Below, piece after piece: positions 9,439-64,000 of a stretch of 64,000 nt of DNA. Numbering within the stretch: the stretch's first letter is position 1; every line of letters starts with the position of its first letter. The stretch comes from Terriglobia bacterium. GTDB lineage: Bacteria > Acidobacteriota > Terriglobia > JAJPHL01 > JAPKYU01. The position numbers and the translations under genes were made by a program. The notes under the pieces were generated by a model. It did not search any database and was not told the DNA's origin. It saw only the letters and a list, made by a program, of their open reading frames with translations. Location of the stretch: positions 1,472,001 to 1,536,000 of the forward strand of contig CBDCVK010000010.1 of NCBI GenBank assembly GCA_965223005.1, read 5' to 3'.

Positions 9439-10204
9439 GGCTCCCCTCCGGCGACACCGCCGGAGCCGGCTGCGGCTCAGGGGGCTTCTGTGACTCATGC
9501 GACGCCACGTAGTAAAGGATCCGGCCGCAGTTCTCGCAGCTCCGAATCTGGTCGTTGGGTCTCACCTCCTGGTAGGCCTGAGGGCGAAGCCGCACGTTGC
9601 ACTCACAGCAGGTACCGTCCCGCAGCGAGGCCACCGCTACCCCTTTTCGGTGGCGTAACAGCGTATCGTAAGAACCCAACACCTCGGGCGATATCTGCCG
9701 GCAATACTCTTCCCGCCGTTGCCGCAACTCGGCCAACGCTTCCTCATCGACCTGGGTCTGGGCAGTGGCTTCCGTCTTCTCTTTCTCCACCGCCTTGCGC
9801 TCGCCCGCCAGTTGCTCTTCCGCCTGCCGAACTCGTCCTTCCAGTTCCTCGGCGGCAATCATCCGCTCCAGGATGGTGTCTTCGATCTTGCGAATTTCCC
9901 CCTCGGCAAACTCGATCTCATGCTGGAGCGCCTTATACTGGTCGTTGGTCTTGACTTCATAAACCTGGTCCTTGTACTTGGAGATTTTCAGCTGGTGCGG
10001 CGAAATTCCACCTTCCAATCTTCGGCGCTCCAGCTGATTGTCAGCCAAGACCTGCCGGTCCCTTTCTAGCTGACGTTGGGCGCCGGCCAGCTTACTTTCG
10101 ATCTGCTGGATATGTCGGGGCAGATAAGCGACTTCTGCGGAGAGGCGTGCGATCTCTCTGTCGACAGCTTGCAACTCGATGGCAAGCTTCAGGTCCGCGT
10201 GCAT
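9431..10204 (-). CDS. Coiled-coil protein with C4 zinc ribbon (DUF164 family)
   Basis: Long coiled coil, KTNDQYKALQHEI, C-terminal CCECNV...CENCGRILYY. Confidence 0.9.
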   Translation of the reverse strand: MHADLKLAIELQAVDREIARLSAEVAYLPRHIQQIESKLAGAQRQLERDRQVLADNQLERRRLEGGISPHQLKISKYKDQVYEVKTNDQYKALQHEIEFAEGEIRKIEDTILERMIAAEELEGRVRQAEEQLAGERKAVEKEKTEATAQTQVDEEALAELRQRREEYCRQISPEVLGSYDTLLRHRKGVAVASLRDGTCCECNVRLRPQAYQEVRPNDQIRSCENCGRILYYVASHESQKPPEPQPAPAVSPEGSRG

Positions 10205-60388: not shown

Positions 60389-61732
60389 ATGTTGCGACTC
60401 TACCTTTTGATCGTCTGCTTGCTGGCGGGGCCAGTCGCGGCTGCTCGGGAAAAAGAGTCGCTGGAAAGCTACCAGCGCCGCCGGACGGCCCTCTCCTCGA
60501 AACTCAATGATGGAATCACAGTCGTCTTCGCTTACGAGGAGCCGGAGGGCCCGTCGGCCACTCTCGGTTTCCGACAGAACGAAAATTTTTACTATTTGAC
60601 CGGCATCGCTGGGCCAGGGGGCATCCTGGTACTGGTGCCGCGGCTGACGGACCGCTCTTCGCCGCACTCTGCCAAGGCAGACAAGTTTCCCCGCGAGATT
60701 TTGTTCCTGCCACCCCGCGATCCGAAACAGGAGCGCTGGACCGGCCCTAAGCTCGGCCCCCGAGATCCGGACGCGCGCCAGCGCACCGGGTTTCAGACGG
60801 TGCTCAGCCAGAAAGTCTTCGAGCAAGAGCTTCTGCGGCTGCTGCCCGCCTACGGCGTGCTCTATACAGTGCTCCCCTCAGGCCATAACAGGGGGAATCG
60901 CAGCTTCGAGCACGACCGCTCGAATCGCCTGAAGACGCTGGCGCCATTCGCCAAAATCCGCGATGCCGGGCCCGAGATTGCGAGCCTGCGTCAGGTGAAA
61001 TCCAAGAGCGAACTGGCGCTGTTGGAGAAGGCCACAGACGCTTCGATGGAGGCGCACCGGGAGGCGATGCAGGCTGTGCGCTCAGGGATCTACGAATACG
61101 AAATCGCGGCCCTGATGAAGTACGTCTTTGAGCGGCTAGGCTGTGAGCGGCCTGCCTTTGCCCCGATTGTCGGCTCCGGGTTCAACTCCACCGTGCTGCA
61201 CTACAACGCCAACACGCGACGCATGCAGGCCGGCGACCTGGTGGTTCTGGACGTGGGTGGTGAGTATGGCGGCTACGCGGCTGATATCACACGCACCTTG
61301 CCGGTCTCGGGCAAGTTCACCAGGCGGCAGCGCGAGATTTATGAAATCGTGCTCGGGGCGCAGAAGGCGGCTATCGCCGCCGTCAAGCCGGGTGTGACCA
61401 TCGGTCGCAAGACGCGGAACAGCATTTACAGGATTGCCTATGACTACCTGGACAGTCACGGCAAGGACCGGAATGGGCACCGTCTGGGCAAGTATTTTAT
61501 CCACGGTGTTGGCCATCATCTGGGACTGAACGTTCACGACCCCGGTGATGTGGGCCGGCCTCTGGAGCCGGGCATGGTGATTACCGTCGAGCCCGGCATC
61601 TACATCCCTGAGGAGAACCTCGGAGTGCGTATCGAAGACGTGGTTTTGGTCACCAAAGACGGCGCCCGCGTGCTGACCGAGGCCCTCCCGCGCGAGGCCG
61701 ACGCCATCGAGCGCGCCATGGTCCAACAATGA
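60389..61732 (+). CDS. pepP: Exported Xaa-Pro aminopeptidase (M24B)
   Basis: FRQNENFYYLTG, R.VKS..E, LHY, D.G...GY.ADITRT, HG.GH..GL.VHD, EPGIY, G.RIED. Confidence 0.93.
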   Translation: MLRLYLLIVCLLAGPVAAAREKESLESYQRRRTALSSKLNDGITVVFAYEEPEGPSATLGFRQNENFYYLTGIAGPGGILVLVPRLTDRSSPHSAKADKFPREILFLPPRDPKQERWTGPKLGPRDPDARQRTGFQTVLSQKVFEQELLRLLPAYGVLYTVLPSGHNRGNRSFEHDRSNRLKTLAPFAKIRDAGPEIASLRQVKSKSELALLEKATDASMEAHREAMQAVRSGIYEYEIAALMKYVFERLGCERPAFAPIVGSGFNSTVLHYNANTRRMQAGDLVVLDVGGEYGGYAADITRTLPVSGKFTRRQREIYEIVLGAQKAAIAAVKPGVTIGRKTRNSIYRIAYDYLDSHGKDRNGHRLGKYFIHGVGHHLGLNVHDPGDVGRPLEPGMVITVEPGIYIPEENLGVRIEDVVLVTKDGARVLTEALPREADAIERAMVQQ

Positions 61733-61815
61733 AGGCCGGCCCGGAGGGGGCAGCCCGGTCTCGGTTGGCAAAACTTAGTGGTTCCGGCTGTGGCTCTCAA
61801 GTGCAGAGGGTATTC

Positions 61816-61851
61816 AAAAAATTCGGCCCCGGAGTTGCAACCTCCGGGGCC
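61816..61851 (-). terminator. Intrinsic terminator (possibly bidirectional with pepP)
   Basis: GGCCCCGGAG-N7-CTCCGGGGCC then GAATTTTTT on the minus strand. Confidence 0.8.
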
Positions 61852-61956
61852 ATATCCTTTTCTACTTCCCCTCCCACCGAGAGGAAAGCCATCTTTCCCA
61901 CCCAATCGCAACTCCACCTCGCGGGGGCCACCAAGCAGGGCACGAGCTAATCTTGC
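61816..61956 (-). ncRNA. Candidate sigma54-dependent small RNA
   Basis: Bounded by a sigma54-type promoter and a terminator; no credible ORF; several small hairpins and four GGTGG motifs. Confidence 0.6.
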
Positions 61957-61966
61957 CTTCTATCTG

Positions 61967-62009
61967 AGCAATCAGGATGCCAGCCCGGCTTTCAGCTAAG
62001 TACTTGAAA
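61967..62009 (-). promoter_or_regulatory. Sigma54 -24/-12 promoter plus IHF-like site
   Basis: TGGCATC-CTGA-TTGCT at 61982-61967; TTTCAAGTACTTA at 62009-61997 with an AT tract. Confidence 0.75.
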
Positions 62010-62126
62010 ATAAACTATAAAGTGGAATTTTCCATTTGGCAAGAATACAAAAATCCGTAGAAGCCAGCCGGCCCTCCAAATTCCCGTATTAGTTGTAGTA
62101 GCGCTCGGGGCCCAAGCTTGTCTTTG

Positions 62127-62273
62127 TCACCGGTCTCGCTCAGTGGCCTGGCTCAGCCGGCGACGCACGTGGTCGGTCATGATGCCGTCTTTGGTCTCCT
62201 GATCGCTGGCAACAACGGGAACAGCACAAGGCATCAGAATCAGCAAGCAAACAAGGAGGCGTAGTATGATCAC
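62127..62273 (-). pseudogene. Truncated exported BON-domain-like gene
   Basis: GTGA overlap with the era stop; MIILRLLVCLLILMPCAVPVVA signal then DGIMTDHVRRRL (BON first helix-like); stops after 48 aa. Confidence 0.45.
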
Positions 62274-63223
62274 AGCGTCAACGGCCCTTCGTCGGAATCG
62301 CTTTTCTCTTCCCCCACCATGCTGCGCCAGTCAATAGCCTGCAAGAACCGCGGGCTTTCGCGCCAGCCAGGACGCACCTTCACGAACAGCTCCAGGTAGA
62401 CCCTCAGGCCGAACAGTTTCTCAAGCTCCTCGCGGGCCCGGGTGCCGATCTTCTTCAGCTTTTCGCCGCGGGCCCCGATCATGATCCCCTTCTGGCCGCC
62501 ACGCTCGACGTAGACGGTGGCGTGAATGCGAAGCAGGCCGGGCTTCTCCTCGAAGCTGTCCACCAGCACCATCGTCGCGTAGGGCAATTCCTGGCGAGTC
62601 AGCAGGATGACCTTTTCCCGGACGATCTCGCCAGCCAGGAAGCGAGCGGGCTGATCGGTGAGGTGGTCCGAAGGGAAGTACTGGGGACCCTCCGGCAGGG
62701 TGACGATAATCCGTTCAACCAGCGTCTCCAGGCCGTCGCCGGTGAGCGCGGAAGTGAAAAGGAATTCAGCAAAATCATGCCGCTGGCGATACTGTTCCAT
62801 CAGCGGAAGCAGGATGCGCTTGTCGGAGAGCAGATCAATCTTGTTCAGTAGCAGGAAGCTGGGCTGGCCGGTCTTCTTCATCAGCTCCAGGGCGTACTGG
62901 TCGCCACGGCCGAAGGCGCGGGTGGCGTCCGCCAGTAGCAGCAGCAGATCACACCCCTGAAGCGCCTCGCGTACCTCGGCCATCATCCTCTGGTTGATCC
63001 GGCTGTCGGGTTTGTGGATGCCGGGGGTATCCAGGAAGATGATCTGCGCGCTAGGTCGGTTCACGACGCCCTGGATACGGTTGCGTGTGGTCTGCGGCTT
63101 GTCCGTGACGATGGCGATCTTGGAGCCGATCAGAGCGTTCAGCAGAGTGGACTTGCCAGCGTTGGGGCGGCCCAGGATCGAAATAAACCCGGAAGCAAAA
63201 CGGCCCTGCGGCACCGCCTTCAT
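62270..63223 (-). CDS. era: GTPase Era
   Basis: GRPNAGKST, KPQTTR, DTPG, NKID, SA..G, KH domain (QKGIMIG..G..LK.IG). Confidence 0.97.
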   Translation of the reverse strand: MKAVPQGRFASGFISILGRPNAGKSTLLNALIGSKIAIVTDKPQTTRNRIQGVVNRPSAQIIFLDTPGIHKPDSRINQRMMAEVREALQGCDLLLLLADATRAFGRGDQYALELMKKTGQPSFLLLNKIDLLSDKRILLPLMEQYRQRHDFAEFLFTSALTGDGLETLVERIIVTLPEGPQYFPSDHLTDQPARFLAGEIVREKVILLTRQELPYATMVLVDSFEEKPGLLRIHATVYVERGGQKGIMIGARGEKLKKIGTRAREELEKLFGLRVYLELFVKVRPGWRESPRFLQAIDWRSMVGEEKSDSDEGPLTL

Positions 63224-63228
63224 CGCCT

Positions 63229-64000
63229 TTATCCTGGGACCGACGACGGCTTCTCGGTGTCGGCAGGACGCATGGAAATGCGGAGGCGATCGACCTTGAG
63301 GCCATTGGCAGCCAGGACCTCAAAGCGCAGCCCGTTGTGATCGAAGACCTCGCCGGGCTGCGGCACATGGCCGGCCAGCGCATTGACCAGGCCGGCCACC
63401 GTGGCCACCTCAGCCGGCGTCTCGGGTCGCACGCCGAACAATTCCTCCAGCCGGTCGATATCTGCATGGCCAGCCACGAGGTAAGAATTGTTTCCTTCAG
63501 CCACCACTTCGCCCGGCGTTTCGGTCTCGTCGTGAATTTCGCCCACGATCTCCTCGACCAGATCTTCCATAGTGGCCACGCCGGCCACCGAGCCATATTC
63601 GTCAATCACCACGGCCATGTGGATGTTCTGTTGCTGCATCTCGCGGAACAGCTCGGCCACCGGCTTGGTTTCCGGCGCGAATAGGACCGGTCGGAGCCGC
63701 TTGCCGGCTCGGATGCGCTTCAGCTCCTGGTCCTCCAGTTGGATGATCTCCCGGGTGTAGACGAAGCCTTCGATGTTGTCTAGGTCGCCGGAGTACACCG
63801 GGACGCGGGAGTAGTGCTTGGTCTCGATCGTCCGCAGCAAATCCTCCAGCGTGACGTTTTTTTCCACGGCTACAATGTTCGGACGCGCGGTCATAGCCTC
63901 GCGCACGGTCTTGTCGCCGAACTCCATCACCGATTGGATCAGCCGCCGGTCTCCCTCCTCGATCAGCCCCGTTTCCTCGCCGCGCTCGATCAGCGCTTCA
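63229..64000 (-). CDS. Hemolysin/CorC-family CBS-domain protein (5' end outside window)
   Basis: VREAMT.R, YSRVPVY, MAVVIDEYG...G.AT.ED..EEIVGEI.DE, CorC_HlyC domain. Confidence 0.93.
   Translation of the reverse strand, partial: EALIERGEETGLIEEGDRRLIQSVMEFGDKTVREAMTARPNIVAVEKNVTLEDLLRTIETKHYSRVPVYSGDLDNIEGFVYTREIIQLEDQELKRIRAGKRLRPVLFAPETKPVAELFREMQQQNIHMAVVIDEYGSVAGVATMEDLVEEIVGEIHDETETPGEVVAEGNNSYLVAGHADIDRLEELFGVRPETPAEVATVAGLVNALAGHVPQPGEVFDHNGLRFEVLAANGLKVDRLRISMRPADTEKPSSVPG

Follow-up and report, generated by a model that had tools for sequence, protein, structure and literature searches.

The convergent genes pepP (60389-61732, plus strand) and era (62270-63223, minus strand), both confirmed with Pfam, are separated by 537 nt (era stop at 62270 to pepP stop at 61732), and this gap raises the question of whether it holds a gene of its own. 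A first-pass annotation of the window, by which we mean the whole 64,000-nt stretch of DNA that was analysed, had placed in the gap an unannotated small transcription unit with a sigma-54-type promoter and a candidate regulatory RNA as its product. We found all of the features that it listed at their places on the minus strand, and the unit has what appears to be its own sigma-54-type promoter, an IHF-like site, an upstream element, and a terminator (Table 1). The promoter reads TGGCATCCTGATTGC at 61982-61968 on the minus strand, and the full -24/-12 word TGGCAT-N5-TTGCT spans 61982-61967; the consensus is TGGCAC-N5-TTGCW, with the -24 GG and the -12 GC ten bases apart. The 5' end of the RNA was placed at 61958/61957 because sigma-54 promoters usually have 11-13 nt between the -12 GC and +1. 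At the other end, the terminator with a U tract ending at about 61816 that had been described is a stem of 11 pairs (61852-61824; nine of them G-C) followed by T6 at 61821-61816. It can be read on the plus strand also, as the pepP terminator. The reading that we favor, and that we regard as probable, is that the unit, which is restricted to one lineage, encodes a trans-acting regulatory RNA that is driven by sigma-54 and switched by an activator.

Table 1. Features of the candidate transcription unit, in window positions, ordered from upstream to downstream on the minus strand.
Feature	Position	Strand	Description
Upstream site A, TACGGGAAT	62080..62088	-	Candidate half-site for an enhancer-binding protein
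Upstream site B, TCTAC-N8-GTA, with TAC/GTA inverted ends	62046..62061	-	Candidate activator site
Sigma-70-like words TTGCCA, 17 nt, TATAGT	62014..62042	-	10/12 positions match; possible second start or chance
Imperfect palindrome	62037-62020	-	
IHF-like bend site TTTCAAGTACTTA	61997..62009	-	TTTCAA-N4-TTA, with an A/T-rich run before it
Sigma-54-type -24/-12 promoter	61968..61982	-	TGGCAT-N5-TTGC = GG-N10-GC
Predicted RNA, about 141-143 nt	61816..61958	-	5' end inferred; 3' end is the terminator
5' module, 31 nt	61928..61958	-	Ends in CCYGCUUGGUGG (first GGUGG)
Second GGUGG unit	61914..61918	-	C run before it
Hairpin H3	61865..61887	-	Pyrimidine-rich 5' arm, purine-rich 3' arm
Intrinsic terminator	61816..61852	-	G+C-rich stem plus U6

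A 48-codon ORF at window positions 62127-62273 (minus strand) overlaps the era stop codon. Its N-terminal stretch is hydrophobic, its C-terminal 24-35 residues are 72-92% identical in three relatives from the genus (tblastn), and it has no Pfam match.

The first-pass annotation would have been refuted by a lack of homologues with the promoter-plus-motif layout, but such homologues exist. One Terriglobia order has the unit in 8 of its 11 genomes, comprising all seven genomes of family f1 and one of the four of family f2 (G010). In a BLASTN comparison with 41 relatives, only the three remaining genomes of the genus gave the region. Applied to the order's 11 genomes, a covariance model limited to the RNA body (R1) yielded weak matches with E values of 0.038 to 0.65 per genome, three of which were true by eye (G005, G006, and G010, the last from the other family); each of these has its own TGG-N9-TTGC, IHF-like site, and terminator. 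The other four of the seven R1 matches inspected outside the genus were not homologues: one was a lone terminator, and three had no promoter, core, or terminator and read like coding sequence. A sequence model of the promoter and the 5' part (R2), searched with strict filters against 151 genomes of the class, added an eighth homologue in G004 (E = 2.7e-7). With these filters it gave nothing credible in the 140 genomes from other orders of the class, and 20 weak R2 loci outside the order lacked the promoter plus core. Searches of three genomes of the order gave no copy of the unit: G007 (97% complete), G008 (92%), and G009 (77%).

Pattern scans gave little more. Two GGTGG motifs occurred in 91 stretches of the genome contigs, of which only one (L015, a copy from the genus) matches the RNA by BLASTN; three matches to this pattern titled Acidobacteria were coding sequence. 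A metagenome scan for promoter and core gave at least 120 stretches, and three among the matches listed had the full layout. All three are close to G005, one is identical to it, and they add little diversity and no information on distribution. The comparative evidence comes from only about five independent lineages, all of them metagenome-type assemblies.

An Rfam 15 scan of 60500-63500 gave a best score of 18.8 bits, to a ctRNA model with a gathering score of 45, and this match covers only the terminator. A scan of five homologous loci gave no consistent match up to E = 1. Acido-1 (RF01686) and Acido-Lenti-1 (RF01687) have been reported as candidate non-coding RNAs of Acidobacteria (PMC2864571). 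The unit differs from both, which had no match up to E = 10 in 60500-63500 or up to E = 1 in the five homologous loci. No Rfam family matches, GlmY, GlmZ, CrcZ, and Qrr included, as the first-pass annotation had suspected. A literature search returned no paper on a sigma-54-dependent RNA in Acidobacteriota and no described Acidobacteriota regulatory RNA tied to a defined promoter type. Judged from these sequence comparisons, the RNA family appears to be real, conserved, so far undescribed, and of a known kind.

The homologous RNA bodies are approximately 140-165 nt long and every one has an intrinsic terminator, which in a metagenome variant shows a compensatory change from G-C to A-U. In 6 of 9 sequences the conserved block starts 11-15 nt after TTGC, where a sigma-54 start would be expected. 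The best-kept stretch is the core CCYGCUUGGUGG, which is invariant except at 2 positions in all eight homologues. The second GGUGG unit lies 14-18 nt after the first in all lineages and reads AGGUGG or GGGUGG, with UGUGGUGG in G010. The four GGTGG motifs reported earlier are at 61932-61928, 61918-61914, 61902-61898, and 61878-61874 (minus strand), a number reached by 1 of 1000 dinucleotide-preserving shuffles of this RNA (mean 0.44). Counts were also high in G001 (four; 0/1000 shuffles), G003 (three; 8/1000), and G010 (four versus a mean of 1.12; 18/1000). The enrichment is weak in three lineages, namely G005 (two; 60/1000), G004 (two; 120/1000), and G006 (one; 177/1000). GGA is not enriched (6 versus 5.8 in shuffles), and in 7 of 7 homologues its count is that of the shuffles.

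The RNA folds better than its shuffles (z = -2.77; 3 of 200 shuffles as good). Among seven sequences, hairpin H3 has 46 of 49 cells paired, and 2 of its 7 pairs change on both sides. Its covariation score is 0.551 versus 0.416 in shuffles (7 of 500 reach it), and controls in which the stem was slid along the alignment were at most 77.6% paired. H3 is the second of two hairpins that had been proposed to display the G-rich motif in their loops. Its stem is kept but its loop is not: GGUGG in the genus gives way to GGUA, GGUG, or GAAA in the other genera. G010 lacks the hairpin, and G004 has a different one. The other proposed hairpin, CGCGA-GGTGGAG-TTGCG, exists in the genus only, and the GGAAAG/CTTTCC stem is likewise confined to it. 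There is no stable consensus for the central fold, where MAFFT and RNAalifold give only the terminator and one short helix. The centre of the RNA has C runs and G runs that permit several pairings.

Two further observations concern the G-rich stretches. Four or more GGG runs lie close together in the RNA bodies at L105:1560-1600 (G010) and at window positions 61870-61905, and the run pattern in G010 (GGG-UU-GGG-UAGGU-GGG-UA-GGG) makes a G-quadruplex possible on paper. In a metagenome variant (L235:4093-4255 compared with L102:1341-1504) both GGUGG units are changed alike, from GGUGGGG to GGUGGGC. A single reader of both units could explain this, as could gene conversion.

The earlier claim of a near-consensus -24/-12 element is borne out by TGG and TTGC, which are unchanged in all eight homologues, whereas the 7-nt spacer between them is free and occurs in 7 forms. 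The promoter is also present in all three of the homologues found with the RNA-only model, which contains no promoter. By itself the word is not special and its frequency in the genome is at chance. The two strands of the 3.24-Mb genome together contain TGGCA-N6-TTGC 26 times, versus about 24 estimated from base composition, and the stricter TGGYAY-N5-TTGCW occurs 3 times versus about 8 estimated by chance. The promoter is raised above chance because it is conserved in eight genomes.

Upstream of the promoter, three elements are kept in all eight homologues. The first is site A, which reads TACGGGAAT, TACGGGATT, or TATGGGTTT, 29-32 nt before site B and about 106 nt upstream of the -24 TGG. The second is TAC-N8-GTA in site B, which is 76-77 nt from the -24 TGG in the seven family f1 genomes and 56 nt from it in G010. 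The third is the IHF-like site that had been seen at 62009-61997, which is kept as TTTCA-N-TTR at 27-28 nt from the -24 TGG in family f1 and 17 nt in G010. Between site B and the IHF-like site there are 48-50 nt in family f1 versus 39 nt in G010. The stretches that separate these elements from one another and from the promoter are not conserved. The spacing steps between family f1 and G010 are thus 10 and 20-21 bp, or one and two helical turns; the loss in G010 falls on both sides of the bend site, 10 nt on each. An enhancer-dependent promoter is expected to have an activator site about 80-150 bp upstream and a bend site in between, and changes by whole turns are what an activator, a bend, and a polymerase on one face of the DNA would be expected to tolerate.

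Sites A and B are found together at only one place in the genome; a look-alike of the upstream sites at C2:54988 led nowhere. We consider this conserved pair, which lies outside the interval first annotated, to be the candidate enhancer. The imperfect palindrome at 62020-62037 that had been given that role does exist, but it is absent beyond the genus and is not kept even within it, and the conserved sites lie further upstream, at 62088-62080 and 62061-62046. The anatomy, conservation, and geometry of the unit are directly apparent in the aligned genomes, and they provide good evidence for the predicted promoter architecture.

The proposal presupposes rpoN, and the genome encodes it (191 bits). 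Six genes of the HU/IHF family are present, as is Hfq (95 bits). Nine proteins carry the Sigma54_activat and HTH_8 domains; of these enhancer-binding proteins, five contain a receiver domain and one a GAF domain, and the other three are short. None of the nine matches the distribution of the RNA across the genomes of the order. Three (L152, L156, and L157) are in nearly all genomes of the order, including those that lack the RNA, four (L150, L151, L154, and L158) have a patchy distribution or occur in the genus only, searches of G005 and G004 gave no L155, and L153, which was looked for in five genomes, was not found in G010. The L153 gene (G000 C10:1063554-1064525) has an in-frame TGA before the ATPase domain and its N-terminal part is missing. 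Its orthologues have 462-465 residues, and in G005 the orthologue is about 7 kb from the RNA on the same contig.

According to the reading that we favor, RNA polymerase with sigma-54 would bind the -24/-12 element at 61982-61968 and would be activated by an enhancer-binding protein at sites A and B, approximately 75-105 bp upstream. An IHF/HU-type bend at 62009-61997 would bring activator and polymerase together. The transcript would then run from near 61957 to the terminator (61852-61816), a length of about 141 nt. We infer that one signal, through one activator, switches the unit on and that the G-rich repeated units are the working surface of the RNA, either pairing with C-rich RNA or holding an RNA-binding protein. 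The first-pass annotation had likewise suggested an RNA that would titrate an RNA-binding protein or pair with CCACC-containing targets.

Hfq-aided base pairing is possible, since the genome encodes Hfq and the predicted RNA ends in a terminator whose U tail is of a type that Hfq binds. Complementary 10-mers number 607 in the genome. Complementary 12-mers outside the locus number about 45 by a rough count versus about 27 expected. Sites of both lengths are at about chance level. We found no conserved target, and the best-placed site, in the rplU-rpmA spacer, is present only in G000, the genome that holds the window. A sponge of the CsrA type is unlikely because no csrA was found (no match to PF02599 in this 96% complete genome) and GGA is not enriched.

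As a comparison, several known RNAs share parts of this design. CrcZ and CrcY of Pseudomonas are transcribed with sigma-54, CbrB, and IHF, and their A-rich repeats hold Hfq/Crc. As in that system, an enhancer-dependent type of promoter would drive an sRNA built of a repeated short motif; here, by contrast, the motif is the G-rich GGUGG in 1-4 copies and there is no sequence relation. The Qrr sRNAs of Vibrio depend on sigma-54 and LuxO and act by Hfq-dependent base pairing. They resemble our candidate in being short RNAs with a sigma-54-type promoter and a terminator U tail in a genome that encodes Hfq, but there is no sequence relation, the RNA described here is single copy, and no conserved target was found for it. 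The likeness to CsrB/RsmZ lies in repeated purine-rich motifs, some of them in hairpin loops, and the difference lies in the absence of a detectable csrA from the 96% complete genome and of GGA enrichment from 7 of 7 homologues.

R2 also matched a second locus in six genomes, always with model positions 35-67. In G000 this locus is on contig C1 at about 9,900-10,060 (minus strand; L142:1400-1570), and others are L141, L143-L146, and L166-L172. The second RNA has a 10-pair stem with compensatory changes, a conserved inner hairpin, CCGCUUGGUGGG as in the first RNA, and a conserved AUGCAAG followed by a U run. For its GCUUG there are two possible partners, CAAGC close to the 3' end and CAAGU in the loop of the stem. 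No Rfam family matches it. It is present in the six genomes plus four more, which probably make up the remainder of the order, and is more widespread than the first RNA; its exact core occurs in only seven stretches of the species collection, all titled Terriglobia or Acidobacteriota. Its flanks vary, with a tRNA-Val gene following in 4 of the first 6 genomes examined. This tRNA-Val(TAC) gene (L142:1293-1347, minus strand, L141, and L143) stops matching just past the anticodon loop. This holds in the three genomes of the genus, where ARAGORN found no tRNA; the gene is complete in G010. The copy in the genus may be an integration-site remnant or an interrupted gene.

In G000, 26 of the 31 letters of the 5' module of the first RNA are identical at the second locus, with a local score of 37 versus a shuffle maximum of 22 (n = 200). 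Scores for the module alignment were above the shuffle maximum in 6 of 7 genomes. No TGG-N9-TTGC was found upstream of the second RNA. It looks as if the sigma-54 RNA was derived from the older second RNA and gained a regulated promoter.

Among known systems, the closest architecture is that of glmY/glmZ. These genes of Enterobacteriaceae are described as having sigma-54 promoters that are activated by GlrR/QseF at three upstream sites, with IHF, and GlmY and GlmZ as two homologous RNAs of which one mimics the other, with an extra sigma-70 promoter in some species (PMC3045617, PMC4152352). The likeness consists of a free-standing sRNA gene with a sigma-54-type promoter, upstream sites (here candidate sites from sequence), and IHF (required there, an IHF-like site here), and of two homologous RNAs in one genome. 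The differences are that there is no sequence or Rfam relation, that the phylum is another, that no link to glmS is known here, and that the second RNA here lacks a sigma-54 promoter. GlrR recognizes TGTC-N10-GACA, whereas the site motif here is TAC-N8-GTA plus a half-site.

The alternative that ranks highest is that the induced RNA is a decoy that copies the 31-nt module of the second RNA and competes for its binder in the manner of GlmY and GlmZ, with the repeated units of C run plus GGUGG as binding sites. In its fullest form it would be a two-RNA circuit, in an order of Acidobacteria that has not been cultivated, in which the signal-induced sigma-54 RNA titrates the partner of the second RNA via tandem GGUGG units, a mimicry similar to GlmY/GlmZ that arose independently. 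The paralogy of the modules points this way, as do the wider distribution of the second RNA, the fact that a model built from the first locus alone matches the second in six genomes, and the tandem duplication of the unit of C run plus GGUGG in every homologue; the like change of both units in variant L235 would also agree. On the other hand, the paralogy may reflect only an origin by duplication. The shared letters are mostly base-paired in the second RNA (the 3' strand of P1, and GCUUG with CAAGC), which sets the two contexts apart. There is no known or predicted binding protein, and the missing csrA and the level of GGA also weigh against it. We consider the decoy to be rather unlikely, and the full circuit no less so.

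A different alternative accepts the RNA and disputes its promoter. The RNA could come from the housekeeping polymerase or from read-through of upstream transcription, with TGG-N9-TTGC being a part of the transcript or another kind of binding site. The chance frequency of the promoter word would allow this, and the sigma-70-like TTGCCA-17-TATAGT at 62042-62014 could serve as a start. However, these words have no counterpart in the other genera with homologues, and within the genus the -10 word degrades to TGTAAT, TGCCAT, and TGTTAT. The only RNA-library data available consist of Logan contigs that two metatranscriptome runs of a single study provide; their source is a relative that is about 90-93% identical, and they carry no strand or end information and may include DNA. 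One contig is unbroken over 61700-62101, from pepP through the RNA, and another covers 61700-62032; both run past the predicted start at about 61957. The run X16 covers only 61700-61806, and the run X19 covers none of the region. These contigs give no support for a start at 61957, which is a mild caution, and the coverage up to 62101 is consistent with read-through.

The neighborhood of the unit argues otherwise. In the genus it is between era and pepP, in G004 it is flanked by a divergent alcohol dehydrogenase gene and pepP, in G005 by a divergent aminotransferase gene and pepP, and in G010 by an amidase gene and a convergent glycosyltransferase gene; in G006 it is between a divergent alcohol dehydrogenase gene and a TonB-type receptor gene. 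Because the flanking genes differ between genomes, the unit is an independent gene. In 4 of 5 contexts the gene upstream is another one or is divergent, and read-through therefore cannot be the general source. Moreover, the letters that are kept in the promoter are exactly those contacted by sigma-54, and distances that change in steps of whole helical turns belong to the geometry of DNA and not to that of an RNA. Together, these points make a housekeeping or read-through origin improbable.

The same contexts bear on the idea that the unit is a cis-acting leader, either a riboswitch or an attenuator, or the 3' untranslated region of a neighbor. In G006 the TonB-type receptor gene is on the same strand about 130 nt past the terminator, as a leader would have it, but in 4 of 5 contexts the next downstream gene is convergent. 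Similarly, the unit follows era on the same strand in the genus, yet era adjoins it only there. With the promoter and terminator that the unit appears to bring along, both versions are very improbable. That the unit encodes a small protein is scarcely credible, since ORFs of 31-48 codons can be read in G000 but, as the first-pass annotation had stated, none is credible: we found no ORF or reading frame common to the nine homologues, most ORFs run through the terminator, the ATG of the 31-codon frame is missing in G003, and indels of 11 and 13 nt occur inside the RNA body within the genus.

If the favored reading of a sigma-54-driven regulatory RNA is correct, the unit is a complete, testable regulatory module with activator sites, a bend site, a promoter, an RNA, and a terminator. 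Although these organisms are known only from assemblies, the module could be transferred to a reporter host. The spacing changes by whole helical turns would amount to a natural experiment in how enhancer geometry works. The paralogy between this RNA and another conserved one points to a pair of new RNA families and, should the unlikely mimicry circuit prove true, both of its RNAs and their partner would be ones so far undescribed.
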